A stretch of 42,417 bases of DNA. Origin: Psammoneis japonica (lineage: Eukaryota). A program made the translations under genes and the position numbers. The notes under the pieces are model-generated. The model saw only the letters and a list, made by a program, of their open reading frames with translations. It had not been told where the DNA came from and did not search any database. Positions 12,811 through 34,100 of this stretch are shown piece by piece (within the stretch, counting starts at the first letter, position 1; every line of letters starts with the position of its first letter). Location: NCBI GenBank assembly GCA_008632985.1, contig QPGO01000222.1, positions 70,206-112,622 of the forward strand. Reading direction: 5' to 3'.

Positions 12811-13599
12811 TGTGTTTTGCATTTGTTGTGTTGTGTGGTGGCAATGATGTGTTTTTTAGCATGATGCTGAGCCAGTCAGCCTGATGGTCATTTTTGGTTG
12901 TTTTTGCAATTGCAAATTGTTCAAACCAACTGGAACATGAATGATTTGTTTGGTCTCAACCTCCAGCTGTCAACTTCATTTGAGCGATGTCGCTTCTTTT
13001 TGAGCTGGATGTTGAAATTGTTTGGGTTAGATGCAGTGTGCATGATGTGTTTGCAGAAGATTGATGTTTGATTTTCTGCCAGTGTGATCTTTGTTGGCTC
13101 TTGTCAAGAACAAATTTTCACATTTGTGCTGGTCCGCAGAGAGCTTGTTTGTTTCTGTCTGTGAGAGTGCCTCTGCAGCTGGCTGATCTTTGCAACAACC
13201 AATCTACACCCACACAGCAACCTTTGTTTTGGCTGCATTTTCATCATGGTTCAAACTCACAGGCAGGAGGTCAGAAGAGGCCATGGAGCCAGTTTTGTGC
13301 AGGTGGCATCAGACCTTTGCAAACAAAGGGGATCATGGAGCTGCTCAATTGGTGCCTTGATTGCTCTGCTGTGGCACTCACAGCAGTGCTGCCTTCAAAG
13401 AGCCACTGCACCAGCCTCCAGAGACAGCATTTCCTGTGCCAATGTTCTTCCTCCTTGCTGACATGTGGTTCCCCATGCCAATGCTGCAGTGTGCTGTTGC
13501 TGCAGCTGCACATCATCTTGCAGCTGTCAGCAACAACAGACTTAAGAAAGCAACTCTCAACTTCATGATGACACTGCAAATGATGGCCACTGCCAGTGC

Positions 13600-14480
13600 C
13601 CAACAACAGCAAACTGAGGGCACTGTTGGTGTCTGGTGGTCCCCAGGAAACTCTTTGAGAGCTGTGGTTGAACATTGCAAGGTTGAATTTTGTGGCATTG
13701 TGGCCTCATGTCACCTTCTTTCCAACAGCAGTGAACTTGGATTTCCAAAGTCAAAATTGAAAAGACCCCATGATGGTGCCAGCCAACCCAGCAACAGCAA
13801 GCTGAGAGTGCCGGGAGTCTGTGGTGACCCCCACAGCTGACGCTGTAGAAGCAGCTGCTGAGTGTTGTGAGGTTGATGTTGTGGCTGAATGCAACCTTTT
13901 CCCCAACAGCAGTGGTGCACCATTCTTTGAATTTTCAAACTCTGAGTCCCAAGTGAAAGGACCCTGTGATGCCACCAACCAACCCAACAACAGCAAGCTG
14001 AGGGCACTGAGAGCCCTGGCAGCCCCCCCCAGCAATGCTTTGAGAACCACAGTTGAGAGTTCCAAGGTTGATCCAATGGTGTTGTTTCCCCATGACATGT
14101 TGTCCCCAACAGCAGCAGCTGACTTTTGAACCTCCAAAATCCAGAGTGAAAGGACACCATGGTGCTGCCAACCAACCCAACAACAGCAAGCTGAGGGCAT
14201 TGGTTGTCCTTTCACTGGCACCCTTGGCATTTGGAAAAGTTCCAGCAGTCAGGGCTGTCATTGCGAACAAGGTGCAAGACATGGAGCCACAACACCCCAT
14301 GAGATCAACTTTGCAGTGCCAAACCACAGCTCACAAAGTGTCACCTGGGCCCCACCAGAAACTGAAAATGCCCTTGGTTTTCTGTTGTTGGGTTGGTTGG
14401 CCACATTGTGGGGTCTTTTTATTTTGGAGTTTGGGGGCTCCTCAAGTCTGCTGCTGTTGGGGACAAGGTGACAGGGGGGC
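13600..14480. repeat. Degenerate ~190-bp repeat units, the last one inverted (about 14230-14480)
   Basis: Recurrent TTTGAGAG...TGCAAGGTTGA...GTCACCTTGTCCCCAACAGCAGCAGACTTGA. The reverse complement TCAAGTCTGCTGCTGTTGGGGACAAGGTGAC is at about 14442-14471. Confidence 0.75.
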
Positions 14481-14499
14481 ACAACAACATCATGTCTGC

Positions 14500-17400
14500 A
14501 CTGTCTCCCCCTCCAATGGGCTCTGTTCTGAGGGAACCCAAAACCTGGAGCTGCGCTGCCTCCCTTTGGTGGGTTCCAGCCAGAGGGAACCCAAAAGCTG
14601 GAGCTGTGCTGTCTCCCTTTGATGGGCTCCCATCTGAGGGAACCCAAAACCTGGAGCAGCACTGTCTCCCTTTGATGGGCTCCCTTCTGAGGGAACCCAA
14701 ACCCTGAAGCTGTGCTGTCTCTCATCAACAGGCTCCCATCTGAAGGAACCCAAAACCCGGGAGGGAGAACCCAAAACCTGAAGCTGGGCTGTCTCTTTTT
14801 AATGGGTCCCTGCCAGAGGGAACCCAAAACCTGCAGCTGCAATGTCTCCCTTTGATGGGCTCCCATCTGAAAAACCCAAAACCTGGCAGGGAACCCAAAA
14901 CCTGGAGCTGCGCTGTCTCTTTTTGATGGGTCCCCACCAGAGGAAACCCAAAAAACCTGCAGCTGCATGGTCTCCCTTTGACAGGTTCCCATCTGAGAGA
15001 GCCCAAATCCTGGAAGAGTGCTTTGTTTCCCTTTGATGGGCTCCCATCTCAGGGAACCCAAAACCTGGTGCTGTGCTGTCTCCCTTTGATGGGTTCCTGT
15101 CAGTGGGAGCCCAAAACATGGAGCTGCGCTGTCTCCCTTTCATGGGTTCCCACATGAGGGGAAACCAAAATCTGGGGCTGAGCTGCACAACTTTGATGGG
15201 TTCCCATCTGAGGGAACCCAAACCCTGGAGCTGCGCTGTCTCTTGTTGACAGGCTCCCATCTGAGGGAACCCAAAACCTGGAGGGAACCCAAAACCTGAA
15301 GCAGTGCTGTCTCTTTTTAATGGGTTCCCATCAGAGGGAACTCAAAACCTGGAGCTGTGCTGTCTCCCTTCAATGGGTTCCTCCTGTCTGAGGGAACAGG
15401 GGAAAGAGGGAGCTGTGCTGTCTCCCTTCAATGGGTTCTCCATTCTGAGGGAACCCAAAACCTGAAAGTGCTTTGTCTCCCTTCAATGGGTTTGGTTCTG
15501 AGGGAACCCGATGCCTGGAGATGTGCTGTCTCCCTTTGATGGGCTCCCACCATTTGAGGGAACCCAAAACCTGGTTGTGCCTTGTCTCCCTTCAATGGGT
15601 TCCCATCTCAGGGAACCCAATGCCTGGTGCCACACTGTCTCCCTTTGATGGGTTCCTGTCTGAGGGAGCCCAAAACATGGAGCTGAGCTGTCTCCCTTTC
15701 ATGGGTTTTCATCTGAAGGGAAACCAAAACCTGGGGCTGTGCTGTGCCACTTCAATGGGCTCCCGTCTGAGGGAACCCAAAACCTGGAGCTGTGCTGTCT
15801 CTCTGTTTGATGGGCTCCCATCTGAGGGAACCCAAAACCTGGAGGCAGGGAACCCAAAACCTGAAACTGCGCTGTCTCCTTTTGATGGGTTCCCATCTGA
15901 GGGAAGCCAAAATGTGGGGCTCTGATGATTTTTAACGGGCACCTGTCTGAGGGAATGTCAAGGTGTTCCTGTCTGAGGGAGTGTCAAACATGGAGCTGCA
16001 CTGTCTCCCTTTGCTTTGTTCTGCTCTGATGGAACCCAAAACCTGGAAGTGCTTTGCCTCCCTCGAGCGGGTTCTTTTCTGAAGGAACCTTGAACCTGGA
16101 GCTGCACTGTCTCCCTTTGACAGGTTCCCATCTGAGGGAACCCAAAACCTGGAAGTGCCTTGTCTGCCTTCAATGGGTTTCCATCTGAGGGAACCCAAAA
16201 CCTGCAGCTGTGCTGTCTCCCCACAATGGGCCCCATTCCAAGGGAACCCCAAACCTGGAGCTGTGCTGTCTCCCTTTGACAGGTGCCCACATGAGGGAAC
16301 CCAAAATCTGGAGCAGCACTGTCTCCTTTTGATGGGCTCCCTTCTGAGGGAATCCAAAACCTGGAGCTGTGCTGTCTCCCTTCAATGAGCTCCTGTCTGA
16401 GGGAACCCAAAACCCAGAGCAGTGCAGTCTCCCTTTGATGGGTTCCTGTCTGAGGGAACCCAAAACCTGGAGTGACACTGTCTCCCTTCAGTGGCTTCTG
16501 TTTTGAGGGAACCCAAAACCTGGAAGTGCCGTGTCTCCCTCCAGTGGGTTCTCATCTCAGGGAACCCAAAACCTGGAGCTGCACTGTCTCCCTTTGATGG
16601 GTTCCCATCTGAGGGAACCCAAAACACAGAGCAGTGCTGTCTCTCCTAAATGGGTTCATGTCTGAGGGAGCTGAAAACACAGAGCTGCACTGTCTCCCTT
16701 TGCTGGGCTTGGTTCTGCAGGAAATCAAAACCAGGAGCTGTGCTGCATCCCTTCAATGGGCGCCCTTCTGAGAGTCCAAAACCTGGAGCTGCACTCTCTG
16801 GAACAGCCTTGACTTCCTTTCATGACAGTGCCTGCCCACCTGACAAGAACAGCAAGCTGAGGCCACTGGCAGACTCTGTCAAGTCCCAAGCAACACTTTG
16901 AGAGCACAGCTGGGTGTTGCAATGTTGATCTCACAGTGTTGTGGCACCATGTCACCTTGTCCCCAACAGCAGCAGACTTGAGCTTCCAAACTCTAGAGTG
17001 CAGAGATCCCATGGCAGTGTTGCCTGGACCAAGAACATCTGCCAGCACCAAAGGGCACTGGCGGTGTTTGGTTCACCCAGAGGAGTGAGACTTCAAGAGC
17101 TTTTGTGGGTCATTGCAAGGTTGATCTTGTGGCACTGTGCCCCAGGGCACCCTGTCCCCAACAGCAAAAGACTTGACTTTTCCAAATCCAAAGTGCAACA
17201 AATCCACTGGCGCTGTCTCCCTTCAATGGGTTGTGTCGTGAGGGAACCCCCAAAACCCAGAGCTGTGCTGTCTCACTTTGATGGGTGCCCATCTGATGGA
17301 ACCCAAAACCTGGAGCTGTGCTGTCTCCCTTCAATGGGTTCCCATCTGAGAAAAAAAACCTGGTGCTGTGCTGTCTCCCTTTGACAATGCACATTGTCCC

Positions 17401-18280
17401 CAACAGCAGCAGACTTGACTTTTCCAAATCAAAAGTGCAACGAATCTGTTGGCACTGTCTCCCTTCCATGGGTTCTGTTTTGAGGGAACCCAAAACCTGG
17501 TGGTGCACTGTCTCCTTTGATGGGTTCCCATCTGAGGGAACCCAAAACCTGGAAGTGCCTTGTCTCCCTTCAATGGGTTCCCATCTCAAGGAACCCAAAA
17601 CCTGGAGCTGCACTGTCTCCCCATCACAATGGGCTCCATTCTAAGGGAGCCCAAAACCTGGAGCTGTGCTGTCTCACTTTGATGGGTGCCCATCTGAGAG
17701 AACCCAAAATCTGGAGCAGCACTCTCTCCCTTTGATGGGCTCCCTTCTGAGGGAACCCAAAACCTGGAGAAAACCCAAAACCTGAAGCTGTGCTGTCTCC
17801 TTTTGATGGGTTCCCATCTGAGAAAATCCAAAATCTGGAGCTGTCCTGTCTCCCTTTAATGCTGGGTTCCTGTCTGAGGGAACCCAAAACCTGAAGCTGT
17901 GCTGTCTCCTTTTGATGGGTTCCCATCTGAGAGAATCCAAAACCTGGAGCTGTCCTGTCTCCCTTTTGTGGGTTCTGTTTTGAGGGAACCCAAAACCTGG
18001 AAGTGTCATGTCTCTCCCCAATGGGTTCTTGTCTCAGAGAACCCAAAATCTGGAGCTGTGCTGTCTTCTTTTGATGGGTTCCCAACTGAGAGCACCCAAA
18101 ACATGGAGCGATGCTGTCTCTCCTAAATGGGCTCACATCCAAGGGAGCTGAAAATGTTGAGCTAAACTGCCTCTCTTCAATGGGTCTTGTTCTGTGGGAA
18201 CTCAAAACCAGGAGCTGCATTGCATCCCTTCAATGGGCTCCCTTCTGAGATGGCCCAAAACCTGAAGCTGCGCTGTCTGG
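14500..18280 (+). repeat. 53-bp minisatellite, roughly 60 degenerate units, interrupted by 190-bp units at about 16800-17200
   Basis: Consensus CTGTCTCCCTTTGATGGGTTCCCATCTGAGGGAACCCAAAACCTGGAGCTGTG. GAGGGAACCC recurs at 14530, 14583 and 14636 (period 53). Confidence 0.95.
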
Positions 18281-18289
18281 GGAACAGTC

Positions 18290-19190
18290 TTGACTCCCTT
18301 TCATGACAATGCCAACCCGCCAGACAAGAACAGCAAGCTGAGGCCACTGGCAGACTTTGGCAAGTCCCAAGCAACACTTTGAGAGCATGGCTGGGTGTTG
18401 CAACATTGATCTCATGGTGTTGTGGCCCCATGTCACCTTGGCCCCAACAGCAGCAGACTTGAGCTTCCAAACTCTAGAGTGCAGAGATCCCATGGCAGTG
18501 CCAACTGGCCCAACATCTGCCAGCAATGGGCACTGGTGGTGTGTGGTGCAACCAGAGTGAGACTTTTCAAGAGCTTTTTTGGGGCACTGCAAAGTTGATC
18601 TTGTGGCACTGTGCCCCAGGGCACATTGTCCCTGACAGCAGCAGACTGGACTTTTTCAAATCCAAAGTGCAGTGAATCCACTGTGGTGCCAACCAGTTTG
18701 ACAACTGCCAGCAAAAAACATTGGTGGTGTCTTTGTTGAACCCCAGGTGAGACTTTGAGAGTGGTTGTTGGGCATTGCAAGGTTGACCTTGGTTTGCTGT
18801 GACAGTGTGTCACCTTGGGCCCAACAGGAGCAGACTTGAACTTCCAAGCTCCAAAGTGAAAGGATCCCCCTTGGTGGTGACAACCAACATTGCAGCTGCA
18901 AGTGGAGAACATTGGCGGTCTTTGATGGACCCCAGGTGACAGTTTGAGAACTGTGGCTGAGCATTGTGAGGTTTGTCTTTTGACATTGTGGCCCCATGTG
19001 TCACCCTGTTCCCAACAGCAGCAGACTTGAGTTGGGCTGAGCTTCCAAACTTCAGAGCACATGGATCCCATGGTGGTGCCAACCAACACAACAACTGCCG
19101 CCAGAGGGTGCTGGTGGTGCTTGGTGGACCCAGGGCAAAACTTCAAGAACTTCTGTTGGTCATTGCAAGGTTGATGTCATGGCAAGAATT
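18290..19190 (+). repeat. Degenerate ~190-bp tandem repeat, about 5 units (same family as 13600-14480 and 16800-17200)
   Basis: Anchor motif recurs at about 18378, 18566, 18753, 18943 and 19141. Confidence 0.8.
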
Positions 19191-20287
19191 GAAATGATCC
19201 TGTCTTTCAATCCAGCGGGGCTGGACAAAACCAAGACCACATGAGCCATGTCTGTGCCACAGCTCCTTGACTTTTTGCATCCATTCTCAAGCAGAGTCAG
19301 AGCTGGCATGTTTTGCTGTGGCTGCTGACCAAATCTTGGGTGGAGAACAGGGCATGATGCATTGCTCCTGGTCCTTTTGATGATGACAGCAGAGATCTGG
19401 CTGAGTTGAAAGCAGACTCAGATTCAGACATGGAAGCCAAGCATCAGATTTTTTGCAATCAAGAGACTCTGCTGCATTGGGAGGTGAAAGAGGTGACATG
19501 GAAAGCTGAGGAAGTTCCAGGCAACAAAGCTGATGACTCAACCAAATGAAACAATGTGATGCACATCAAACACCATGTTGGAGTTGAAAGCTGGAAAGCA
19601 CAAGGATCTGTTGAGTGCATTGGTCAAACAAATGGGGTGAAGGCTTTGCAAGACATGGGCGCAAGGCAAACCTAAAAAATGTGGTTGCATGGCTTGAGGA
19701 GTCTGCCCCACACCTCTGGACCACACCTTGCACCAAACAAGGAACAACAACTGAAGGTTTGTGTTCACCAGTGCTGCTTTTCACATTGTCACACTGCACA
19801 GACCTTGCGCCCAGCTGGTTGCACCACACCCTGATTCTGCAAATGTGGATTTTTCACTTGGACTTGCTGTTGGAACATTTGGCACCAATGCTGCCACAGG
19901 GATTGCCAGAAGGTTAAAAACCTTGGCCATGTCACCAGTGTGTGCCCACTGGGAAGGTGCTTTTGTGAGTGGTGGGGAAATCCAAGGCTTGCACTGCTGT
20001 GCTGGATCTGATGTGGGCCTCCCACAACACACCAGCCAGATTGTGTCACAAAATCCTGGGCGGCAAAGCAAGGCTTCTTTCAGACAATGAGTTCAACAAA
20101 AGCGGAGCAAACTTGGAGGATTGCCAGGCAAACTGATTTGTGCAGTGCAGCTGAGAACAGTTCAATCAGCATTGGTGCCCAATTTGAGCAAGAGAGTCAG
20201 CAAGCACACAACAATGTCAAGTCAAAGTTGTTCTTGTTGGCAGGAGGGCGGCATGCTGAGGGGCACAACTGCCACAGATGCACAAGC

Positions 20288-20563
20288 TGACAGAAAATGA
20301 AGGCAAATGGCAAGAATTCAAACAACAACTCCTTGCTGCTGTCTAAATGGCAGATGAGTCTCCGCTCAGAGACCGTTGCAGGAGCCGAAAGACGTGTGGG
20401 TCGGCACAATCGGGCTACTGTTGTCATTCTTGTGAGCCTTGTGGCTCGAAAGCAAACTACATCGCGCGCGAACGCGCGGAACTAAAGCACACAAAACTGT
20501 GCGCGGTAAACTAAACAGCGCGCGATGCTTTGCGCGCATCCAAATCCTGTTCAAATCCTGTCA
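20288..20563 (-). repeat. 3' LTR (276 bp), hypermutated copy
   Basis: Aligns with 27120-27403 with 9 substitutions and one 8-bp indel. Confidence 0.96.
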
Positions 20564-23500
20564 CTCCCCAGTTTGCTTGAGGAGCCACAGAAACAGATTC
20601 GACTTCGGATGGAATGAAGTTCCAGAACATGAGGGGGCGGAGAAGGTCCCAGATTTGGGAGTGACCCCAATGCTTGCTGAGAATGTCAGCAGGGTTGCGG
20701 GAGCCTTCGATGAAGTGGAACTCAAGGCAACCAGAGGCAATTGCCTCACGCACACGGTGGAACGACAGTGCGGTGTGTCGCTTGTGTAACTTGGAGTGCG
20801 GGATGGTGGCACTGTCTACAACCGACTTGTTGTCACCGAACATGTAACTGACATTACGGATCGGGACGCCAAGGTGGCGCAGGGTGATGCGCAGGTCGAC
20901 AATCTGCTCAACACAATTCCTTGCGGCAACAAATTCAGACCCGCAGGTTGCAGTCTCCACGGTGGCTTGTTTCTTGGAGAACCAATCAGCCGGGAATTTG
21001 TTGAGGAAGTGGAGCATTCCCATGACAGAGCGTCCGGTGAGCATGCAATGGTGCAAGTTTGCATCGACGCAGTGGGTGGCAGTGACGAACTTGCCAAGGG
21101 GCGGTGGAGCGTCCTTCGGGATCATCTCTTCTGCTTCACCACACACGGAATGCATCCATTCACAGGCCGGAGCAGGGAGATCCGAATGGTCGGGCTCTTC
21201 CGTGCGAACGCGGAGAGCACCGTGTCGCATCTTGGAGAGGTGCCCACAGACGCGTTTGGCACGATCCAAGTGGCCTTGACGGGGCGCAGCTCGGAAGCTA
21301 GAGAGTGACATGACGGCCGTGGTAATGTCAATTCGACCAAGGGACACTGCCCATTGGAGTGAACCAACAAGAGACTGGAACTTGTGAATGCCATCGGGTC
21401 CCAGCAGTTCGGAAGTGTCCAGTTCGGGGTGGTCACCCTTCTCTAGAGGTGACAGGGCGTTGGTGGCAGGTTTCTCCCCAAACAGTCGGGCGCAGCTGTC
21501 GACCATGCGCTCGATGTACTTGCGCGGAGACAGGCACAAGGTTCCGTCGGGGTCCCGGGAAAAGTCGCAACCCAGATGGAACTCAATGGGTCCCGTGCCC
21601 TTGAGCTTGAACTTGTGCTTTTCCGTGAGAGTGTCGACGAAAGGTTGAGGGTCCTTCATGGCAATGGCGAGGTCATCCACATAAACGGCAATGTATTCAC
21701 AGTGGTCGCCGTTCCTGCGCATCCAAATGTCGGGTTCGGCGCGGCAGGGGAAGAAGCCTTCAGCTCGCAGGCAGTCGGCGAAGCGTTCGTGCCAGCGGAG
21801 ACCGGAGCTGCGCAGTCCATACAGTGCCTTGTGGATGACAAGGATGTGTCCTTCGAGTTTGCCAAATTCGGGTCCAGCTACAATGTAAAGCTTCTCCTTG
21901 GTGGTGGCCTCAAGGTGGGCATTGCCAATGTCGGTGGCCCATGTCTCCAGCTCGTTGAGTTCGGCCAGGAAAATCATCAGCCGAAGGCCACGAAGGGAGA
22001 CCACTCCGGAGCAGACACTGTCGACAGGTACGTCCGTGAGGTGCCCGTCGGCTACGAGTCGTGCCTTGTGGCGACCGTCGTGTTTCACGTGGTACACCAG
22101 GTGCACTCGGATCTTCTTGTGTCCCGCAGGAGGAGTGGAAGACTTGAAGGGCCCGCAGTCATGGAAGACTTCGTATTCGTCGAGTTGGTCCATCTCGAGA
22201 TTAGTTGCGTCTCCCCACTTGCGGTTGCCGTTGCGTTCGTCTAGTGACATGGCGTGTTTGTAGTTCCGGGGAACTTCGTATCCGCACTTGCAGCGAGGTG
22301 CAGTGCGGAAGGAACGAAGCTTGGCTTGGTTGGCCATGCGAAATAGTTTCTTTTGGCGCCTCGCGACAGTGCGGAACCGCTTCCAGCCATCCGTGTCGAG
22401 GAGTCCGTTCTCTCGTGCATAGATGGCACAGGTGACGGGGTCGTCCTTGGCGATGATGGCAAGAGGCTCGGACGTGATCTCCCCACTTTCCCATTCAAGC
22501 ATGATGTTGTAGCTTGAGCCTTTCCAGGTTGGGTCGTGAGGCTTCAGAGGTCCTTCGTGTGACACGATGCGTCGAAATTTCCAAACAGTGGTGTCTTCGT
22601 CTTCTTGCTCAATGTGATTCATGATGTCATTGTAGGCAAGGACTTCCTCGCATTCGTCATTGTTGACAGAGCAGACGAACTTAGTGAGCTCGGGATTGCC
22701 GTTCACTTTCCATTCGTGGTCTTCGACGGCCTTGACGATGCGAGCTCTGTGGCGTTGACCGTCCTCTTGTGGCTGCATGAGGAAGGTACGTCCAATGATG
22801 TCTTGCGGATCGAAAACTGGCATCTTGGGTGTCCTGATCTCCCCATCAGGAGAATCGACGGGGTTGTCGTCATGGCGAGATTTGATGATGGGTTCAGGTG
22901 GCTCCCCATCAGGAGGATCAAGACGCAGGTTTCGAACAGCAGGATCGGGGGCAGCGGAGCGAACGTTGGACCGGCAGAGGATCTTTTGAGTCTCGTCAGA
23001 TAGGATCTTGAAGGTCATCTGGTGGCCGACGTGCTCAGCAATGCCAACGAAGCGTCCGCGCAACTCACGGGATTCGGACGGCCAATCGGAGTCATCGAGG
23101 TGGAAGTACACTGGTTCCCACCAGTGAAAGCGAAGCAATGGGCTGATGTCCGGGGTGGATCCAGTGAGAGTCTCGAGGGGCGTGCGCCAGTGGAGACGTG
23201 GGGACGCTGTGTGGTTGAGTGTGAAGCACACGCACATGAGCGCCAGCAGCCATGTGTGGGCGGGCGAACCAAAACGGTCCATGACAGTGTTCGCCATGCG
23301 CTTCACGGTCTGGCAGCGACGCTCGGCAAAGTTTTGGTGTTGCTGGTGAGGCTCACTTTGCCAGCTGGAGATGAAGAGGGCGCGCAGGATCCCGAGCACT
23401 TTGTTGCTGATCTCAACTTGAGCACGGTCGCTAATGAGTTTGGATGGGGCACCACGTTCACGGATCTGATCCTCGAGTGTGTTGACAAACTCTTTGTCCG

Positions 23501-26180
23501 TCTCAGTGCCGTAGATGTCAGTGACGGTAGACTCGGTGCCAACAAACAGTTGGGCGCTGGTGCAACCAGAGTCGACGGCCGGGGTGTCGGCACGAACGGT
23601 GTCAGTGGCGACAGGCTCGTTGCGGCGGTGCACATTAAGGGCGGGGTTGGGTGATTTGCAGGCCTTGCGAAGGTGTGCACCGGCGGGCATGCGGGCGCAC
23701 TGCGTGGTGCAGTCAAAAGTACGACGGACCGTATCGGCAGGTGGGAAGCCAAAGCAAGGCCGAAGAGACTCGAAGGGGGGGTCCTTGGGCTGTACAGTGC
23801 GCTCCGGAGGTGGAACGTCATCGCCCTTGGGGTCAATCGCATGCATGTGACACTCGTAGAACACGTCGTCGTTCGGAATGAGGTGATCATCGAGGGCGGA
23901 CGCGTGATCGGCAGACAAGGAAGCGGACAAGATGGTCTCGTTGACAACGACACGGTGGCGGCAGTTGCCGCATTTGTCAAACAGGTTGGCAGTGGGATCG
24001 TCCTGTCGGTCAGAGATCGCGTCGCACCACTGGTCGTCGTCAGTGACAGAGTGATCGAGGACGGAAGGGTCCCATGTGTCATCACCGGTGAGGATGACAT
24101 GGGGCAGGGTGTCCCATTCGGCGTCAGTGTAAGGTCGCATGGCAACATGAGGCAGGCCAGCCTTGATGTCAATGGGGATGACACAGCCATCAGGAGTGGC
24201 AACACGTTGCAAGCCGTTGGGCACCTTGACAGAGCGATCGTTGACATCCTGTTTGCACCATTCGAGCTGGCCGCAGGAATGGATGGTCTTGCCCTTTCCC
24301 GTGCAAGCGCACTGATGGAGGATGGCGATGACGGGACCACGCTGGGTCTCAATGACGGCACCAGCGGTGACAATGGGGATGTCCACCAATTGATGATCGT
24401 CAATGCCCTGAACGTCGACTTGGCGAGAGGTGCGTGCGATGACGCGGACGTCGTCGCCAGCAATGCCGCCGTTGGCCCCACGATCGACTAGAGCGCCAGT
24501 GCGTGTGGAGCGATGAGCAGAGGCAGAGTAAATGACATTGTGGTTGTCAACGCGGCGGCAAGTGCGGCCGTTAAGTTCGATGTCATCTGCAGAAGCTGGC
24601 GGGGTAGAGGAAGCGGCGGATGGCCCCGGTCGACTGGCATTGGGGGCTTGGTTAGGAGACAACAGACGTTGCAGATCACCGGGTGGCAGTGGCTTGCGCT
24701 TGGTGAGGTGCGCCAGGACAGGATTGTCCGAAATGGCATCCACATGTGCAGCGGAGTCACCACAGTCAGCAGGAGTCGTGTTGGACAAGTTGACATCACC
24801 GTCACTCCCAAGGTGTTGGTCGTGAAGGTTGGCCGTAACAGACTCATGGCAGTCACTGGCTCGCGGAGTGCGGGGAGGCGGACGAGAGTGCTCAAGGATG
24901 ATCGCCTTGGAGGAATCGGGCAACGAATCCCAGAGCCGTTGGTGGTCGGGAGGGAGACATCTCCATTGGACACCGGCGAGGCTGGGACCACGGGTGTCGG
25001 CAGCATTGGCTTGAAGGACGTCAACGTCACTGTCAATGTCGTAGAACACATCGTCGGACGGTTCCTCGGAGCAGACGTCGTGTGCGCATGTGGCGCGTCG
25101 GGGAGCTCGAGGTGTCGTCTTGGGTTGAAACGTGCTGTCGCACTGAGCTGCCGCGGAGAGGAGCAAGCCACAGCATTGATCATGTGTGAGGCTCTTGCCA
25201 CTCTGCGTGCGATGCTGATCAGCTTGGTTCTTGACAGCACGGAGTTCCTCGACAGGGTGCACGGCATTCTCGAGCATGACGCGCTTCTGTCCTTCAGAGA
25301 AGTGGTCGCTGGCGGGGATGAGTGCCTCGCACTTGCGCAACTGATCTTGCCAATGAAGGATGAACCCGTGGGTCGGACCTTTCCAAGTGCCATCACCAAG
25401 ATGTGCGGTGGTGAGGCACGTGAGCAGGGTGGAGGACTCGACAGATGCACGGGTGGAGGCAAGCGCGCATTCAGACAAGGAGCGGCAGACGGTCTGTGCG
25501 TCAGAGGACCCCACATTTTCGCGAATGAGAGCCTTGCCCTTGTCGGTGAGAAGGATGCGTTCGAAGACGGCGAACATGTGCTTTTGCTGTTCAGCAAAGA
25601 GCAGTTTGTCTTCGGGGCTGGTCGGTTTGTACGACGAGTCTAGAATGCACTCGACGTCTTGGGCACGGGCTTGTGCCACAAGTGAGGTGTGCCAAGTGTG
25701 CCACTGCTTGTCGGATTTGAGAGCCGTGAAAGCGGTGGGATCACGCTTGATGCCTCGCTTGAAGTCTCGCACCGGGTCGCGTGCCTTGGTCGGGTTGGTG
25801 ACATGTGGAGGTGCAAGGGGTGAGCTGCCGATGGACAGAGAGGACATGTGGTCCGGGCTGAGGCGGCAGGCAAGGAACTCGTCATGCGTGAACAAAGAGG
25901 AGTCGTTGGCAACGTCAAGACCTTTGTGTGCTTTGACAATGTACAGGCTGGCCAGTGCTGCTAACATGTTCTTATAACCACGGGGCAAAGGGATTGCATT
26001 GGTGCCGTTGTCGCACTCAAGCGAGTCGATTTGGGACGGTGTGAACGTGAACAGTTCCTGATGCGAGTCCGTGCCGTCTTGGGCCAAAGCCAAACGAAGA
26101 GGACTCCCAGCACCTTGGGCAAGCACGGTTCCAACAACGTGCTCGAAACCATCGGTTTGTTGCTGACGAGTGAGAACCAT
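20511..26180 (-). CDS. Copia gag-pol polyprotein; open frame but probably inactivated by Tyr>Cys/His changes
   Basis: Protease LVDRGAN; integrase VATD..ISD..AER; RT HKARLVA, KALYGL and YVDD; RNase H VDAN, SEFVAA, GDN and ADILSK. Integrase precedes RT, the Copia order. Confidence 0.95.
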   Translation of the reverse strand: MVLTRQQQTDGFEHVVGTVLAQGAGSPLRLALAQDGTDSHQELFTFTPSQIDSLECDNGTNAIPLPRGYKNMLAALASLYIVKAHKGLDVANDSSLFTHDEFLACRLSPDHMSSLSIGSSPLAPPHVTNPTKARDPVRDFKRGIKRDPTAFTALKSDKQWHTWHTSLVAQARAQDVECILDSSYKPTSPEDKLLFAEQQKHMFAVFERILLTDKGKALIRENVGSSDAQTVCRSLSECALASTRASVESSTLLTCLTTAHLGDGTWKGPTHGFILHWQDQLRKCEALIPASDHFSEGQKRVMLENAVHPVEELRAVKNQADQHRTQSGKSLTHDQCCGLLLSAAAQCDSTFQPKTTPRAPRRATCAHDVCSEEPSDDVFYDIDSDVDVLQANAADTRGPSLAGVQWRCLPPDHQRLWDSLPDSSKAIILEHSRPPPRTPRASDCHESVTANLHDQHLGSDGDVNLSNTTPADCGDSAAHVDAISDNPVLAHLTKRKPLPPGDLQRLLSPNQAPNASRPGPSAASSTPPASADDIELNGRTCRRVDNHNVIYSASAHRSTRTGALVDRGANGGIAGDDVRVIARTSRQVDVQGIDDHQLVDIPIVTAGAVIETQRGPVIAILHQCACTGKGKTIHSCGQLEWCKQDVNDRSVKVPNGLQRVATPDGCVIPIDIKAGLPHVAMRPYTDAEWDTLPHVILTGDDTWDPSVLDHSVTDDDQWCDAISDRQDDPTANLFDKCGNCRHRVVVNETILSASLSADHASALDDHLIPNDDVFYECHMHAIDPKGDDVPPPERTVQPKDPPFESLRPCFGFPPADTVRRTFDCTTQCARMPAGAHLRKACKSPNPALNVHRRNEPVATDTVRADTPAVDSGCTSAQLFVGTESTVTDIYGTETDKEFVNTLEDQIRERGAPSKLISDRAQVEISNKVLGILRALFISSWQSEPHQQHQNFAERRCQTVKRMANTVMDRFGSPAHTWLLALMCVCFTLNHTASPRLHWRTPLETLTGSTPDISPLLRFHWWEPVYFHLDDSDWPSESRELRGRFVGIAEHVGHQMTFKILSDETQKILCRSNVRSAAPDPAVRNLRLDPPDGEPPEPIIKSRHDDNPVDSPDGEIRTPKMPVFDPQDIIGRTFLMQPQEDGQRHRARIVKAVEDHEWKVNGNPELTKFVCSVNNDECEEVLAYNDIMNHIEQEDEDTTVWKFRRIVSHEGPLKPHDPTWKGSSYNIMLEWESGEITSEPLAIIAKDDPVTCAIYARENGLLDTDGWKRFRTVARRQKKLFRMANQAKLRSFRTAPRCKCGYEVPRNYKHAMSLDERNGNRKWGDATNLEMDQLDEYEVFHDCGPFKSSTPPAGHKKIRVHLVYHVKHDGRHKARLVADGHLTDVPVDSVCSGVVSLRGLRLMIFLAELNELETWATDIGNAHLEATTKEKLYIVAGPEFGKLEGHILVIHKALYGLRSSGLRWHERFADCLRAEGFFPCRAEPDIWMRRNGDHCEYIAVYVDDLAIAMKDPQPFVDTLTEKHKFKLKGTGPIEFHLGCDFSRDPDGTLCLSPRKYIERMVDSCARLFGEKPATNALSPLEKGDHPELDTSELLGPDGIHKFQSLVGSLQWAVSLGRIDITTAVMSLSSFRAAPRQGHLDRAKRVCGHLSKMRHGALRVRTEEPDHSDLPAPACEWMHSVCGEAEEMIPKDAPPPLGKFVTATHCVDANLHHCMLTGRSVMGMLHFLNKFPADWFSKKQATVETATCGSEFVAARNCVEQIVDLRITLRHLGVPIRNVSYMFGDNKSVVDSATIPHSKLHKRHTALSFHRVREAIASGCLEFHFIEGSRNPADILSKHWGHSQIWDLLRPLMFWNFIPSEVESVSVAPQANWGVTGFEQDLDARKASRAV

Positions 26181-27104
26181 GGCAGACAAAAGTGGTGTCA
26201 GGACAATCAATTCTGGTCGGGAAGCGAAGGCAGACTCGAAACTTGGGTGAGAATGGACTTGACTTGAAACAGACTTGACTTGAAATCTTGAACCATCTTA
26301 AAATCAGAAGTCGCCGGGCTTTGTCATCCCGTTCGTTGTCAAGTGCTAAACTTCCCATCCGGGCCGTAGAGTTGTGCCGGCACGTCCGAACCCGCAGCCA
26401 GCGGCGCTTTGGGTTGCTTGCGAGCGGAGCAGCGGGTTGTAAACCCCTGCAGGCAAGCTGACTGGAGGTGGACAAGACCCCCGAACCGTTCTTATTTTAT
26501 GTCGGTTGGATTTCCCGATCAGGCTGGCCAGTTGACGCAGGCGTCAGGCGCTGTGGACGAACGAACAAACGCGGGAAAGCACCCTCGCCCCAACGCAGGC
26601 TGTAATCACGGCTGCTTGCTCTCACAGTCGTCCTCGTGGACCTAGTGGAACTGTAGAGCACCAGTAGTCCGGGGTAGATCAGGTACAATGGACTCGGTGT
26701 GCTTGTAGAGTGGCAGCAAAACCGCAGTCCGAAGAGTGGGTACAGGTTCTTGGCCGTGAAGATATGTATATATATATATGTCTTCAGCGACGAAGATCCT
26801 TGAATATGTAGGGTTCTTGACCGTTAACCGATGAATAGGTATATCAAGGGATGAGGATCAAGGATAGACTTGGATATGACCGTTGAATGTATGTCTTCAG
26901 CGATCAAAGGTAGTATAATCAATCCAGATATCCAGCGGTAAGGAGACTTGACGGTGACGTTAACTTCCTGCCGATGCCCTGGTATTGAATGCGCGTAGAC
27001 TTGCCGATGTATGTAGAATATATACGGAGGTCCACGTAGAATTGAAATAGCGTCGTTGGTAAATCAACGACGACGATGGCGGTTGCTCAATGGGTTGACA
27101 ATGA

Positions 27105-27119
27105 GCAAGACTGTTAATC
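27105..27119 (-). promoter_or_regulatory. Putative primer-binding site complementary to the anticodon arm of tRNA-Asn(GUU)
   Basis: Immediately inside the 5' LTR the sense strand reads GATTAACAGTCTTGC. Its complement GCAAGACTGTTAATC contains the tRNA-Asn anticodon loop CTGTTAA. Confidence 0.6.
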
Positions 27120-27403
27120 TGACAGAAAATGAAGGCAAATGGCAAGAATTCAAACAATAACTCCTTACTGCTGTCTAAATAGCAGATGAGTCTCCGCTCA
27201 GAGACCGTTACAGGAGCCGAAAGACGTGTGGGTCGGTATAATCGGGCTAGGGCCCTACTGTTATTATTCTTGTGAGCCTTGTGGCTCGAAAGCAAACTAC
27301 ATCGCGCGCGAACGCGCGGAACTAAAGCACACAAAACTGTGCGCGGTAAACTAAACAGCGCGCGATACTTTGCGCGCATCCAAATCCTGTTCAAATCCTG
27401 TCA
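27120..27403 (-). repeat. 5' LTR (284 bp), TpA-retaining copy
   Basis: Direct repeat of 20288-20563; carries an extra 8 bp forming TAGGGCCCTA at 27248-27257. Confidence 0.96.
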
Positions 27404-28273
27404 CAAGCAATGAGCCCTTCTTGCATTGTCACTCTGGGCACTTGCGCTGCCCCAAGATTGATGGCATCTTGCTCACCCCAAATGTGCAGCAGCCACCAGA
27501 GCAGAGGAGCCAAGAAAAGGTGTGATGATGCCAAGCATCACATGAACCAATTTCAGAAAAAGAACTTGTGATTGCTCTGGGTGGCCATCAGCTGGAAACC
27601 TCAACTCAGATGGCACTGAAAACAATTGCAAAGAAGTGGCAGTGGTGTTTCTGACAACACAGCATGTCTGCAAAGTGGTGGATTTGCTCGCCAACATGAA
27701 CAGAGCACAAGTTGTTGCAAACATGATGCTTGAGTGCAGTTGTTTTGTTGTGTGCTCTTTTCCACATCCCCAGCTTGATGGCTCACCTTGATGACTTCTC
27801 ATGTCCACACCAGCACTTTGCCATCTTCCTTCTTTTGACATCATGGCATCTCATCTTTGGTTTGTGCCACACTGATCAGCTTTTCATCATCATCCAGAGC
27901 TGCTTCATGTGAGGTTGTCATTGCTGTCAAAGTTTTCTGACAAGTTTGCCTTGGTCCAGCTGCATTTCCAGGCTCTGGCACAATGCACTCTCCAAGAATT
28001 GCACAGGTTGGAAAGCTGCCAGGTTTGCGCACTCGCTGTTTCAATGATTTCTGCATCAAAAATGTGCAATCAACAGGTCACTGAGTGTCGCATGTGGCCA
28101 ACAGCTTCCCCAACAATGCCAAGCACACAATGTTGTTAGAGACACAAAAAAGGCAGTTGTGTTGGACAGCAGGTGACATTGGTGCAAAAAGACATTTGGT
28201 GCAAACAAGCAAGCAACTCTCATGGACTTCAGGAAGAACAACAACCAATTTGCAAGTCAATGTTTGCCATTTC

Positions 28274-28308
<35 letters not shown>

Positions 28309-29300
28309 GACATGTGGCCAGGGTGCTGGTGCCTTTTTGCACAGTGGATTGACAGAACATGCAGCTGAGATTGCAAAATTCCCCTGCATGTCTCTGGGCA
28401 TGGCTTGGTCAATGAGAAACAATGCCAAAAGGTGGCAGGAGTGGTGCCATGGAAGGTGTTGCAAACAGAAAATGCTTTTTTGCACTTGTCTTCACATGCG
28501 CATGTTTTCTCTTTTTCTGGAACTCCAGCACCGGGCAGACAAATTCTCACCAAGATGAAAACTCACAAGATGAGGTGTTGCACATTTGAAGCCATTGCAA
28601 CACCATCATCCAAGATGTGCATTTTCATCCCAGGTGAGAAACTTTTGGACAAATCACGAGGTTTTTTGCGCGCTTCTGTGCAGCACACACACATGCCCAG
28701 AGAACAAAATGCCAGCTGCGCAGGTGGCCAGCACAGTTGAGTTGTCCATGAATCAATGAAAGAAGAACAAGCACAGCCAACATTTGCAAAAATTGTGAAT
28801 CAGCAGAAACTGCCTTCACAAATGTGAAAATTGCAGCCATTGTTCATTGTTCTTCTTGCCAAGTGCAGAAACATGTTGCAGACACAGCCAACACCATGCT
28901 GTCAACAAGGCTCGCAAAGTTGCAGAGTGTGCATTTGCACTGCACCTCTCCAGCTTTTGCCAAATGAGCCCAGAGGCAGGCCAGTGCACCTTTGCCACTT
29001 TGGCCAAGAAATCTCGCTCACGTGCTCGCCCTCTTGCAAAAACCTCTGGCAGCAGGCAGTGTCTTTTGATGTGCGGCGCTGAGGCAAACATTTGTCAATG
29101 CAGGTGCAGGGGTGCTGGGTGGCACCCAGAGAGATGTTTTTGGTCTGGACCCATGCTGGCCAGTCGAAGAACCAAACAGAGAACACAACGGCTCCAAATG
29201 ATGCACACCCACAACTTCTTCTGTGACTCTCCAACAATTCTTTCCTCCCTTGCCTTCCATCTCTTCTCTGGCTTTTGTGACCTTTCGCCACTGATGGATC
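27404..29300. other. TpA-depleted, CpG-poor hypermutated domain (right arm); unidentifiable relic
   Basis: Only one TpA seen (TTAG, about 28137) in about 1.9 kb. Confidence 0.9.
28274..28309 (+). repeat. (TTG)12 microsatellite
   Basis: Read directly from the sequence. Confidence 0.97.
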
Positions 29301-29413
29301 AAGTTACCTCGACATGCACCACCGCGTAACAAACAAAAGAAAAGAACCCACAAAAAATGCCTCTGTCTCTCAAACAAAGCATGGCAAAAGAAAATAGAAC
29401 GTCCAAGCGTGTG

Positions 29414-30760: not shown

Positions 30761-31167
30761 ATCACGATCAACCACTCTGTGAGATCATCTCAAGGTAGCA
30801 TGGGAGGTAAGGTGTGATACAAAAATGTATGTTCTGTATGTTTTTTCCTTTTTGATCATGTCTCTTTCTCTCGTTCTGCCTGCCTACAGCACATAGGTAC
30901 TGCATGGTTTCTACCAGGTAAATCATTAGTTTACACAACTACAGTAAACCATGGTGTGCCCGGTCGATTGCACACGCTACTATATTCTTGGTATCTCATA
31001 CATCGGTATACAAAACAGCAAATGTGAAAGTGTCCGCCGAACACTACACAATTGCCATACCAATCCGTTTCTCTCTTGCTCATCTTTGCGAGAAGCTGTA
31101 CTCCTTATATACTCACAGTCGTGAAGCCTACCCAAAGGCCTCGTCCGGTCGACGTCATCATCTACCT

Positions 31168-34100
31168 CTACCAGGCAAAGTCTTCAAAGTCAGAGTCTTC
31201 ATCATCCGAGTCTGCTTCGAGGTCATGGTCGTCTTTGTCTGAGTCTGCTTCCAGGTCGTGGTCATCTGAATGCACGGTGTGCAACGAAGCGTCATCCGAA
31301 GCGTCGTCCGAGTATGTGTCTGCTAACTCATTGGAGTCAGCAGCTACCTCATCATCAATCCACTGACCATAAAATGTTGGTTTCCCACGACTTCGAGGAC
31401 CCAATGCATTGTTATCACTCGTAGGGGGCATGACCAACGCCACGGCCTCTTCCTCGGCGTCGCTCTCTGCAGGTTCGACAGAAGTTGCACCGGTAAGATT
31501 CGTCAAGCGTGATGCATTACTCTCACTCGCATCCAACTCAACGGCCTCTTCCTCGGCGTCGCTCTTTGTACGTTCGACGGTATCGACTGAAACAGCACCC
31601 GTAGGATTCGTCAAGCCTGATTCTGGCGGATCCTTCCTATTTGCACCGGCAGCCTTCGTCGCGTTGGATTTCGGGTATTCCTTCCTAGACGTGTCGGTAA
31701 CCTTCTTTTTCTTGGGTTTGGGAGGATCCTTCCTACAGGCAGATGCTACCGATACCGCAGCCTTCCTCTTGGTTGATTTCCCACCGGCAGACGCCACTAA
31801 TACTGCAGCCTTCCTCTTGGTTGATGATTCGGGAGGATCCTTCCTAGTAGAAACGGGAGGAGTGTCGTAATTGGCAACAAGGCCGTGAGTAATGGAGAGT
31901 GCAAGTGCCATTTTCTTTTGAGTGTTCGCTTCCAATTCAGCTCGGGCTTTTGCGGCTGCTACACGCTCCTTGTCAGAGACCTGGTACTTTTCACGAATAG
32001 TCCACATGGACTGACTTTTTTCAACCTTGATCAAGTACTTTTCTGCCGTTGCAATGTACTGATACTTCAAATACTTGATTTTCTTGTCAACCTTGGTGAA
32101 CGTCACTTCCACCGTGGTGATGTTTTCCTTTTCCCGAAGAAGCAGAATATCGAACAAGGCAACAACGTCGTTCCAGTAGATGTGCGTTTTGCCGCACTGA
32201 CGAATGTAGCAAAGAAGAGCCCGTCCACACAACTCGTTGAACCAACCGTCGTATTTATCATTTTTTCTTCGGATTTCTCGATTTTCTTTGGTTGACTTTT
32301 TGAAAACTCCGCGGCTCTGCCGGTCCTGCTCTTCAGCGGCCCTTTTCTTCTTCATTGCCGATCGAAGATCATCGTCAGCGGTAAGTCTTTCTTGTTGAAG
32401 ATCCTCGTGACGCCTTCGCTTGACGCGATCCTGTTTCCGAACGAAATCGCGACCGTGTATCGCCAAGTCTCTCTCACGCGCTTCCTTCACGTATCCACGA
32501 TGATATTCGGCCCGCTTTTTTAGGATATCGAGGCGTTCCTGCTGCTCATCGGAAAGGCTACTCAGACTGCCAAGGTAAGCCACCTCGCGTCGCTCCATTT
32601 TGCGATGGCATCGCTGGCAAACGAAATAGCCAGCACAACCGTGGCCGCCGCCTATCCTTGACCCTACACAAACCATGGTCCGAGAATCACTGTCCGCTTC
32701 ATTTTCGTCGTCAGCCGTCAAAGAGCAGTCTTGCGCGGGAATGTCAGCAATGGCGGGGGGACCGGGGCAGCTCCACCGAAGACTCCAAGGTGAGATTGGA
32801 TCAGAGTTGCTATCCGTCGTTAGCTTGAGGTCATGAGCTTCCAATAGTTTGCAAAAGTTCCCTTCGGATAGGGACATGCCAAACCACAAGGCATCGTAGC
32901 AATTGAGGTTCAATTGTTTCGATACCGCCATGACGCCGTTGTCATTGCTGGTTTGAGCAATGAAGTATCCTTTGGGCAGGGCAAGGCGGCGACCCTTGTT
33001 GAAGGACTCCTCTTTGTACTTGTCAGAGTCTTGCTTACTACAACTCATCAGGAATGACTGGAGTATCTTGTGTTGATTCTGTACGTTTTCCGCCGAGACG
33101 ATTCCTGACGCCAACAATAATTCCAAAAACGTTCGATACGCCTTGATGGAACTAAAACGATGTTGTTGCGACTTCTCTTCGGCAAAAGCGACAAAGAACG
33201 ATGACGTGATGATGATGCGATGTTTAGTCGATCGAGAACGGACAAGACTCAGTGCACGGTCGGGCAAGATGTCAATACTCCCGTCCATGTCGACTGTCTC
33301 TTGGAACCAGTTACCATGCTCTTTCTCCAAAGCGTCAACAGTATTCCGCTCAATAACAATGACATTGTTGGTCGGCATTGACTTCAGAAGCCGTTGCAGG
33401 ACGTCACGTGCACCTTTTGCAAGTGATTCCGTAGTGGGAGGCACGTAATGACTCTTGTTTGCCCCCTGTAACTTCATCATGACGTTTCTAATGACCTGTT
33501 TGTTTTCATTTGTCATGGGCTTGGCCAAAGACTTTTCTAACTCGACAATTACTTCTTGCAATTGGAGCTCGCGCGGACTCGTCTTGATGGAGTCTTCGAA
33601 ACCGCCGTAGTAATGTTCCCCAACAGACTCCATGGCTCGATTGTTCTTTACGAAGCCCCCCTTGGGTGGTACTGGCGAGAGCATGCGCTGAAGGAACTCG
33701 TTGGTCACGGCCATTTCTTGTAATCGGTACGGAAGTGTTGGCCAAGAAAACTGAAAGAATATCCCATTTGGTGGAACGAGCGTATCAATCATGAATGCCT
33801 TGGCATCGTCGTCGATAGGAGTCGGTGCGAGGGTATCCAGGACTTTTGACGATGGCAAAGCGACAAGCCTCTCTCCGACGGGGCCCCATTCGCATTCGAA
33901 TAGTGATGACGCTACTGCTTCCGCCACCTGCATCATGATGAGGTCGTCAATCTCCTGTTGATGATCTGGATGCACGGCAAGGCATCCAGTTCCAGAGCTT
34001 TTGATATCGGTAAGAAGTTGCTTGGGAAGGAGCTCGTAAATCCGTTCTTGATCTAAAAGGCGTGCGGCGAATTGAATGTTTGTTTGTTGTTCGATGCGCG

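Follow-up and report, generated by a model that had tools for sequence, protein, structure and literature searches.

A TpA-specific T:A to C:G mutation signature in a copia-type retrotransposon and its satellite-bearing host island in a diatom

Hypermutation restricted to TpA dinucleotides has been described in one 2026 preprint, from one alga and with no known enzyme; its occurrence in diatoms, in LTR pairs and in satellites is new. In mutation-accumulation lines of Bigelowiella natans, integrated viral DNA underwent T/A>C/G hypermutation at TpA only (Mettrop et al., bioRxiv 10.64898/2026.01.13.699255). According to the main text of that preprint, two regions of integrated viral DNA changed at ~6e-7 per site per generation, ~1000-fold above background, and the genome contains 124 TpA-poor, CpA- and TpG-rich clusters. 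An ADAT2-like adenine deaminase is named there as a proposal only, and the Discussion notes that ADAR prefers U 5' of the edited A. The terms CpG, LTR, retrotransposon and tyrosine have 0 occurrences each in the main text, and we found no report in the literature of TpA hypermutation or a RIP-like process in diatoms. The first-pass annotation of the DNA studied here knew of no described mechanism of this kind, a gap that the B. natans preprint fills.

We analysed a 42,417-nt stretch of DNA, referred to below as the window. As in B. natans, to the extent that the preprint's main text describes it, the changes are T/A>C/G transitions only, at TpA only, yielding TpG or CpA according to the strand. 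The changes are confined to local patches of foreign or TE-like sequence in an otherwise normal genome, and they leave TpA-poor, CpA- and TpG-rich clusters behind. The rate is far over background in both cases (here, as a lower bound from the LTR pair, >0.9 events per TpA site vs <0.012 per other LTR site; ~1000-fold there). However, the host here is a diatom, a stramenopile, whereas B. natans is a chlorarachniophyte, a rhizarian, and the DNA struck here comprises a high-copy LTR retrotransposon together with a 53-bp satellite, in place of the single-copy giant-virus and virophage inserts reported there. The diatom evidence is comparative, not drawn from mutation-accumulation lines, and the old diatom island is also CpG-depleted. 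A matching signature in a diatom indicates that the process is no curiosity of a single lineage. It extends the targets of the TpA mutator to retrotransposons and satellites, and narrows the enzyme search to genes common to two distant algae.

Fungal RIP likewise inactivates repeated or mobile DNA after integration, by dense transitions on both strands in a fixed CpA/TpG-TpA context. RIP, however, converts CpA to TpA, lowers the GC content and makes stop codons, whereas here TpA is destroyed, GC goes up and no stops are made, in a non-fungal host. Dependence on duplication is also without support: a 0.7-kb control duplicate within the window (31145‒31860 and 38479‒39216) is untouched, its two copies differing by 39 transversions and 31 transitions, an ordinary spectrum, and the main text of the preprint describes single-copy DNA as affected in B. 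natans. APOBEC3 (C>U, cDNA) and ADAR (A>I, RNA) in animals provide a further likeness, namely deaminase-type hypermutation of retroelements with a neighbour-base preference. These enzymes act before integration and on one strand, whereas the diatom element has changes on both strands and a mismatched LTR pair, and a non-retroelement satellite is affected too.

The minus-strand element at 20288‒27403 carries the 5-bp target duplication CAAGC immediately outside both LTRs (Table 1), and direct repeats were found at 20284‒20564 and 27116‒27404. LTRs of the TG...CA form, the 5-bp duplication and an RVT_2-type reverse transcriptase place it in the Ty1/copia type, as in the CoDi-like elements of diatoms. 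Its polyprotein has 1,244 homologs at E <= 0.001, the best 120 of which show 46‒72% identity, most of them 60‒72%. Even at E <= 5, RVT_2 (residues 1360‒1572) was the sole Pfam family recognized in this copy as well as in its closest homolog, and the integrase that the copia type places ahead of the reverse transcriptase gave no match. Upstream of RVT_2 lie 1,350 residues that are conserved across homologs but carry no Pfam name. The C-termini of the homologs are too variable for the original stop codon of the polyprotein to be located. All organism names among the best 120 matches of a nearby DHX15 helicase ORF were diatoms, at 81‒84% identity.

The island holding the element covers 11.5 kb and is nearly devoid of both TpA and CpG, while the observed/expected ratio in the remainder of the window is ~0.6 for TA and ~1 for CG. 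Targeting is therefore local, with TpA ratios of 0.01‒0.04 in the island and 0.21 in the polyprotein frame vs 0.60‒0.63 in the flanking gene regions. The CpG ratio in the frame is 0.94. The TpA density shifts abruptly near 26250, and the ratio for 26251‒27403 (5' LTR and leader) is 0.87.

Table 1. Features of the element and its host island (window coordinates)
Feature	Position	Strand	Basis or value
Host island, left part	10651-20287	.	TpA obs/exp 0.04, CpG 0.08, CpA 1.53, TpG 1.81
Diverged 53-bp satellite array in island	14500-18280	.	
Target-site duplication CAAGC, left	20283-20287	.	identical 5 bases beside both LTRs
3' LTR, 276 nt, TG...CA, lacking an 8-bp stretch	20288-20563	-	alignment
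Copia-type polyprotein frame (RVT_2), 1899 codons, first ATG at 26180	20511-26210	-	
Leader, ~940 nt, 5' LTR to ATG	26181-27119	-	TpA undepleted
5' LTR, 284 nt, TG...CA; TA at 15/15 aligned TpA sites	27120-27403	-	alignment
Target-site duplication CAAGC, right	27404-27408	.	identical 5 bases beside both LTRs
Host island, right part	27409-29304	.	TpA obs/exp 0.01, CpG 0.14, CpA 2.02, TpG 1.91

Alignment of the two LTRs matched exactly the nine substitutions listed in the first-pass annotation, at 20326, 20335, 20349, 20378, 20405, 20407, 20423, 20425 and 20527 of the 3' LTR. All nine sites read TA in the 5' LTR, at the high coordinates, and TG (five sites) or CA (four sites) in the 3' LTR. The earlier estimate of changes at 9 of about 15 TpA and 0 of about 21 CpG sites was borne out by a recount, with 9/15 aligned TpA sites of the 5' LTR changed in the 3' LTR and 21/21 CpG sites identical. 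Within-TpA positions differed at 9/30 vs 0/246 elsewhere in the LTR pair (Fisher p = 6.4e-10). The claim that nothing else had changed holds for these 246 other positions as regards substitutions, but it overlooked an 8-bp indel, 27247‒27254 being absent from the 3' LTR. On the sense strand of the element, 4/9 of the LTR-specific changes are A>G and 5/9 are T>C.

Two processes dismissed earlier as ill-fitting do not account for the LTR differences. Methylation-driven (5mC) decay leaves TpA alone and strikes CpG, whereas the young element has lost TpA with 0/21 CpG sites changed; CpG decay and TpA loss can thus be told apart, and the latter runs much faster. Editing of the ADAR type, and likewise of the APOBEC type, would mark one strand and be common to both LTRs, whereas the changes observed are specific to one LTR and, with five TG and four CA, lie on both strands. 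The LTR pair shows TpA loss outpacing CpG decay and all other substitutions, and so provides a natural clock. As outgroups for the nine sites, a 22-nt LTR word searched in metagenome contigs matched one unrelated sequence by chance (L001), and a protein-guided scan of viral contigs yielded none. Since the nine sites have no direct outgroup, the polarity of the LTR changes was extended from the adjoining frame.

In that frame, the polyprotein contains 1.16% Tyr vs 3.82 +/- 0.31% in 82 full-length homologs (minimum 3.03), 2.90% Cys vs 0.93 +/- 0.17% (maximum 1.41) and 4.63% His vs 3.51% in the same set. Conserved Tyr columns were taken to be those in which 80% or more of 40 homologous polyproteins have Tyr. 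Among the 38 such columns, 12 retain Tyr, 17 have become Cys (TGY), 6 His (CAY), 1 Arg (CGT) and 2 Phe, while other conserved residues are kept in 662/716 columns (vs Tyr, p = 8e-19). TpA>TpG/CpA steps alone explain 30 of the 80 changed conserved columns. UpA selection or codon bias was rejected as the cause of the TpA poverty, the changes at conserved Tyr being non-synonymous. None of the 120 other homologs listed is Tyr-poor, indicating that the process is not general among the relatives of the element.

These conserved-codon Tyr>Cys and Tyr>His changes, together with a satellite site carrying TA, TG and CA and an alternation of TG, CA and TA among family copies, support the earlier proposal that TA is ancestral and that A>G and T>C arose on both strands. 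The opposite polarity, in which the 3' LTR is ancestral and ordinary RIP-like C>T changes at CpA made the TpA sites of the 5' LTR, would have the same CA/TG vs TA pairing as fungal RIP; it is permitted by the nine sites, which without an outgroup would be 9/45 CA/TG sites, and the TpA ratio of the 5' part does exceed the 0.60‒0.63 of the window. We nevertheless regard it as most improbable, since the adjoining frame is polarised TA>TG/CA at an equal rate (23/38 Tyr codons vs 9/15 LTR sites), the satellite site split between TG and CA retains residual TA and never CG, and the host belongs to the diatoms and not to the fungi. RIP also creates stop codons, and its earlier rejection stands on both its opposite direction and the lack of any stop in 1899 codons. 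Changes from TA to TG or CA cannot make a stop codon, so the frame has stayed open despite many Tyr>Cys and Tyr>His changes, and the encoded polyprotein is probably dead. As the process makes no stops, a long frame that looks 'intact' in a genome of this kind can be dead, and annotation calls for caution in that TA-free DNA yields spurious long ORFs.

The same signature was observed in the satellite array of the island. Across 65 units, columns 38‒39 read TG in 29, CA in 19, TA in 5 and CG in 0, and columns 25‒26 read TG in 25, CA in 17, CG in 7 and TA in 0. For both dinucleotides, the states are intermixed from unit to unit (runs test p = 0.67 and 0.77). The loss of CpG to TpG and CpA in the island (observed/expected 0.08‒0.14, and the TG, CA and CG states of columns 25‒26) resembles methylation-driven decay. 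The island has 99 open frames of 70 codons or more; a Pfam scan of 48 of them gave none at the curated cut-off, and tblastn of the island with 4 copia homologs found matches at E > 0.4 only. An origin of the changes in chromosomal DNA, as claimed in the first-pass annotation, gains support from this non-retroelement satellite; the part of the claim by which the 3' LTR mutated in situ once this copy had integrated has rivals in gene conversion and in assembly mixing, considered below.

Reverse transcription copies RNA-level changes in U3, R and U5 into both LTRs, and APOBEC3G editing shows a 5'-to-3' gradient. Both facts bear on editing before integration, in which an adenine deaminase would act in the manner of APOBEC3G on the genomic RNA (giving sense A>G) and on single-stranded minus-strand cDNA (giving sense T>C). 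The excess of sense A>G over sense T>C at Tyr codons (17 vs 6, p = 0.035), the confinement of T>C at these codons to the 3' part (0/10 upstream vs 6/13 downstream, p = 0.019) and the sparing of the 5' LTR and leader, reminiscent of that gradient, all agree with such a course. It would further suppose that the 3' LTR was exposed after strand displacement and that the 5' LTR and leader were copied at once, and we judge it very unlikely. RNA changes should reach both LTRs, yet the LTR-specific changes comprise four A>G and five T>C; the satellite island, which was never reverse-transcribed, bears the same signature; and in B. natans, as the main text of the preprint describes, the changes occur in place in chromosomal single-copy DNA.

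Over 20000‒20313 of the TA-free island, a 1,720-nt contig at single-copy depth matches the window at every letter. This contig bears on a sequencing artefact, in which a modified base at TpA would be misread as G or C by the platform. Platform and library are unrecorded and the reads come from one sample, which would suit such misreading; strand-dependent misreading, however, would be expected to produce a TG/CA split, which this contig lacks, and the CpG loss of the island and the amino-acid changes would require misreading to be near-total. The B. natans signature was, moreover, seen with Illumina reads according to the preprint's main text, and we consider an artefact hardly credible.

We then compared the window with contigs of run X1, a single sample that is possibly that of the window's assembly. 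A total of 14,450 contigs fall on the element, where the summed contig depth is 57,000‒285,000 vs 67 and 148 in the flanks. Relative to the window, these contigs show 95 A>G, 92 T>C, 60 C>T, 63 G>A and 42 transversion changes. Of 360 variant places, 40 were listed; 14 of these form 7 adjacent pairs, with TG in the window and CA in other copies or the converse, 5 have TA in the window against TG or CA elsewhere, and 4 show the opposite. Family members vary in the 8-bp LTR indel (5,355/25,627 of summed depth), a hint that the two LTRs may lack an undisturbed common history. Independent contigs agree with both flank‒LTR junctions, with 0 other letters, over the 26 nt that they extend into each LTR; the nine LTR letters are those of the window assembly alone and fall among the 320 variant places outside the 40 listed.

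These family data are central to the possibility that the TpA>TpG/CpA process is real, but that the 5' 1.15 kb (5' LTR and leader) was acquired from an unmutated member by ectopic gene conversion or through a mix-up in assembly or polishing, in which case the LTR difference would be no timer. The great excess of depth on the element, the abrupt change in TpA density near 26250, the indel polymorphism among copies and the fact that unique contigs do not confirm the nine sites are all consistent with it. In opposition, the target duplication is intact, and the LTRs carry no substitutions outside TpA, whereas in the frame 187/7,998 letters of the listed family contigs are at variance with the window. 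The listed leader contigs, from three small runs, differ at just 12/1,438 letters (p = 9e-5), a weak hint, both sets being the selected longest pieces, that leaders are spared throughout the family and that this one was not exchanged. On balance, we consider conversion or mix-up unlikely.

We consider it probable that a copia-type element entered an island of the diatom nuclear genome and that chromosomal DNA there then underwent local, TpA-specific T:A>C:G mutation. An LTR retrotransposon from a very-high-copy copia-type family would have inserted into the satellite-bearing island, and a locally targeted mutator with chromosomal DNA as its substrate would change T:A to C:G at TpA, leaving TpG or CpA according to the strand struck. 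In the old island, ~96‒99% of the expected TpA is gone, and CpG too; the young element is short of ~60‒68% of its TpA in the frame and 3' LTR and of no CpG, with the 5' LTR and leader untouched. The underlying chemistry is most likely adenine deamination in 5'-TA-3' by an ADAT2/TadA-like enzyme acting on DNA, with a mutagenic thymine modification at TpA as the alternative. The segment 26251‒27403 is spared between purged sides of the island, which a purely regional process would not predict.

More tentatively, diatoms and chlorarachniophytes may share a programmed DNA-level defence running in the anti-RIP direction, in which adenine deamination erases TpA from mobile, viral and satellite DNA in strand-biased tracts and spares the promoter-proximal 5' LTR and leader. 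Under such a shared defence, the sparing of these parts would point to element structure (transcription, small RNA or chromatin), and not to location alone, as the guide. Were this so, the defence would be widespread in the SAR supergroup and would shape the repeat landscape of major marine phytoplankton.

The sequence context of the changes was also considered. An extended motif limited to WTA is ruled out, since 5/6 of the Tyr>His events are CAC codons, in which the struck strand reads GTA. The trend that remains, and that the shared defence would incorporate, is a preference for A at position ‒2 and a sparing of CTA.

Direct repeats were detected in the window at 20284-20564 and 27116-27404, and the features of the copia-type LTR retrotransposon and of the surrounding DNA are listed in the table. 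Since the frame bearing the RVT_2 domain lies on the minus strand, the low-coordinate LTR is the 3' LTR, as the first-pass annotation had assigned it.

Features of the retrotransposon and its flanking DNA (window positions)
Feature	Position	Strand	Description	Basis
LTR retrotransposon	20288-27403	minus		LTR alignment and flanks
LTRs			276 and 284 nt; both begin TG and finish CA	alignment
Target duplication			CAAGC, 5-bp, perfect, on both sides of the element	flanks
Open frame	20511-26210	minus	1899 codons; first ATG 26180; RVT_2 reverse transcriptase domain	
Island around element	10651-20287 and 27409-29304		nearly devoid of TpA and CpG	
Satellite	14500-18280		diverged, 53-bp, within island	

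The nine substitutions reported between the LTRs were all present, precisely where the first-pass annotation had placed them. The 5' LTR carries TA at 9/9 differing sites, and the 3' LTR carries TG at five and CA at four. Nine of the 15 TpA sites in the alignment had changed, as against none of 21 CpG sites and none of 246 non-TpA positions (Fisher p = 6.4e-10), corresponding to approximately 0.9 events per TpA site vs at most 0.012 (upper bound) per other site. The loss of TpA sites was one-sided, at 9/15 in the 3' LTR vs 0/15 in the 5' LTR (p = 0.0007). The claim that the LTRs differ only at TpA held for substitutions, but overlooked an 8-bp stretch (27247-27254) present in the 5' LTR and absent from the 3' LTR. 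Part of the family lacks it too (5,355 of a summed depth of 25,627 in sequencing run X1), which makes the indel a polymorphism that is either recurrent or inherited.

Polarity is the crux, because the nine LTR differences alone would also fit ordinary repeat-induced point mutation (RIP), that is, CpA>TpA in the 5' LTR. Homologs of the polyprotein numbered 1,244 at E <= 0.001; the best 120 listed showed 46-72% identity (most 60-72%), and the 82 of these with 1800-2000 residues formed the composition reference set. Compared with this set, the element is a gross outlier, with 1.16% Tyr (3.82 +/- 0.31% in the homologs), 2.90% Cys (0.93 +/- 0.17%) and 4.63% His (3.51%). When the first 40 of the 82 were aligned, 38 columns had Tyr in 80% or more of them; the element retained Tyr at 12 of the 38, the others being 17 Cys (TGY), six His (CAY), two Phe and one Arg, a CGT codon representing a double hit. 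Other conserved residues were retained at 662 of 716 columns (p = 8e-19 vs Tyr). A single TpA>TpG or TpA>CpA step turns TAY into TGY or CAY, respectively, so that TA is ancestral in the frame, and the loss of Tyr codons (23-26/38) agrees with that of TpA in the 3' LTR (9/15).

Contigs from four runs of one public sample (X1-X4) were compared with 20000-27700. The family is clearly very abundant: 14,450 X1 contigs matched, and summed word depth, which is not copy number, was 57,000-285,000 within the element vs 67 and 148 in the flanks. Differences from the element comprised 95 A>G, 92 T>C, 60 C>T, 63 G>A and 42 transversions. Among the 40 variant places listed of 360, 14 formed seven adjacent pairs with TG in the window and CA in the copies or the reverse, five had TA in the window and TG/CA in other copies, and four showed the converse. 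Two conserved Tyr codons (20876 and 21188) read His in the window, but Cys in roughly half of the family depth or more. A dinucleotide that alternates between TG and CA is to be expected only where ancestral TA was hit independently, copy by copy.

The observed/expected ratios in the two parts of the island were 0.04 and 0.01 for TA, 0.08 and 0.14 for CG, and 1.5-2.0 for CA and TG, vs approximately 0.6 (TA) and 1 (CG) in the remaining window. Its open frames are long only because TA sits in two of the three stop codons, and no protein family was found in the 48 of 99 frames scanned. Across 65 satellite units, one dinucleotide reads TG in 29, CA in 19, TA in five and CG in none, and a second reads TG in 25, CA in 17, CG in seven and TA in none, while positions with stable TG or CA remain uniform. 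In runs tests (p = 0.67 and 0.77), the TG and CA states were intermixed over the array. Thus TA was ancestral at one position and CG at the other, and both have repeatedly given way to TG/CA in DNA that does not undergo reverse transcription. The element retains full CpG (0.94-1.10) despite its TpA loss, from which it follows that TpA is lost much faster than CpG; the contrast with the island suggests two separable decay processes of very different speeds. Taken with the Tyr>Cys/His changes and the other copies, the satellite supports the TA-ancestral direction proposed in the first-pass annotation, and a reversed, RIP-like polarity is highly improbable. An artefact of base calling at a modified base has a negligible chance of accounting for the pattern, given a clean single-copy contig across the TA-free flank.

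The tract of TpA loss spans the 3' LTR and the frame to ~26250, whereas TpA is kept in the leader and 5' LTR (26251-27403; observed/expected 0.87). Among listed contigs of three small runs, a selected set of pieces, 12 of 1,438 leader letters and 187 of 7,998 frame letters differed from the window (p = 9e-5), a weak hint that the leader is spared across the whole family. The retention of TpA in the leader and 5' LTR may reflect a process guided by the structure of the element, through transcription, small RNA or chromatin, or else gene conversion or assembly mixing at this copy; derivation of the 5' end from such conversion or a chimeric assembly is considered unlikely. Tyr codons showed 17 sense A>G vs six sense T>C changes (p = 0.035), the latter only downstream (6/13 vs 0/10 upstream; p = 0.019). 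This strand gradient is compatible with editing of RNA and cDNA before integration, but the LTR-specific changes lie on two strands and the satellite carries the TpA mark too, making such editing quite improbable. Surviving TpA sites in 20288-26250 and the island were rich in CTA/TTAG-type contexts, and A was scarce at position -2 relative to the target A (11/114 strands in the tract and 1/42 in the island; 26-35% elsewhere), which hints at an extended target preference. LTR sites containing CTA/TAG changed in one of six cases and the remaining LTR sites in eight of nine.

Altogether, both strands of chromosomal DNA carry T:A>C:G transitions at TpA, which are locally targeted and occurred at a rate far above background. 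The first-pass interpretation is upheld in direction and kind. The underlying chemistry may be deamination of adenine to inosine in a 5'-TA context; the natural target of TadA is A34, following U33. Because TpA is its own complement, a mutagenic modification of its thymine would leave an identical pattern. Adenine deamination would account for the symmetry between strands, and it would agree with the preference of ADAT/ADAR-type enzymes for U before A, which is described in the main text of the bioRxiv preprint 10.64898/2026.01.13.699255. A precedent for such a process, of which the first-pass annotation knew none, is given in the same text: two viral regions integrated in the genome of Bigelowiella natans mutate ~1000-fold faster than its remaining genome in mutation-accumulation lines. 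Nearly all of these changes are A>G or T>C, and all lie at TpA, giving TpG/CpA. The text further describes 124 TpA-poor, CpA+TpG-rich clusters, finds TpA-poor genes to be enriched in reverse-transcriptase and DDE domains, and proposes an ADAT2-like adenine deaminase; a term search of this main text gave no occurrence of CpG, LTR, retrotransposon or tyrosine. Here, in contrast to the viral targets of B. natans, the targets are a retrotransposon and a satellite, and the host is a diatom: among the best 120 matches of the adjacent DHX15 helicase frame, all organism names given were diatoms (81-84% identity), including Fragilaria, Ditylum, Pseudo-nitzschia and Nitzschia. Full-text literature searches found no report of such hypermutation in diatoms. 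With its diatom host and with a retrotransposon and a satellite as targets, the present case adds to a kind of hypermutation described once, in 2026.

Elsewhere in the window, a dispersed 0.7-kb duplicate pair (31145-31860 and 38479-39216; 86% identity) had diverged by 39 transversions and 31 transitions, which is an ordinary spectrum. It overlaps a 994-codon minus-strand frame (31168-34152) without a Pfam family, and a near-perfect tandem duplication (98%, 147-bp offset) lies at 36895-37245. A 741-codon DIOX_N/2OG-Fe(II) oxygenase frame (9264-11489, minus strand) reaches the island with ~260 codons upstream of its domains, an extension that is probably spurious because TAA and TAG cannot occur in TA-free DNA; a second oxygenase of this type lies at 4032-5462. 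A MatE-like transporter gene fragment (1-1900, minus strand; weak Pfam match, below cut-off) resembles the element in composition (observed/expected TpA 0.19-0.34, CpG 0.83). It carries Cys (TGC) at a column with Tyr in 59/65 homologs and two more Cys/His where Tyr occurs in 30/59 and 20/66, with one conserved Tyr retained, and could be either a pseudogene or another target of the TpA process, in this case of cellular type.
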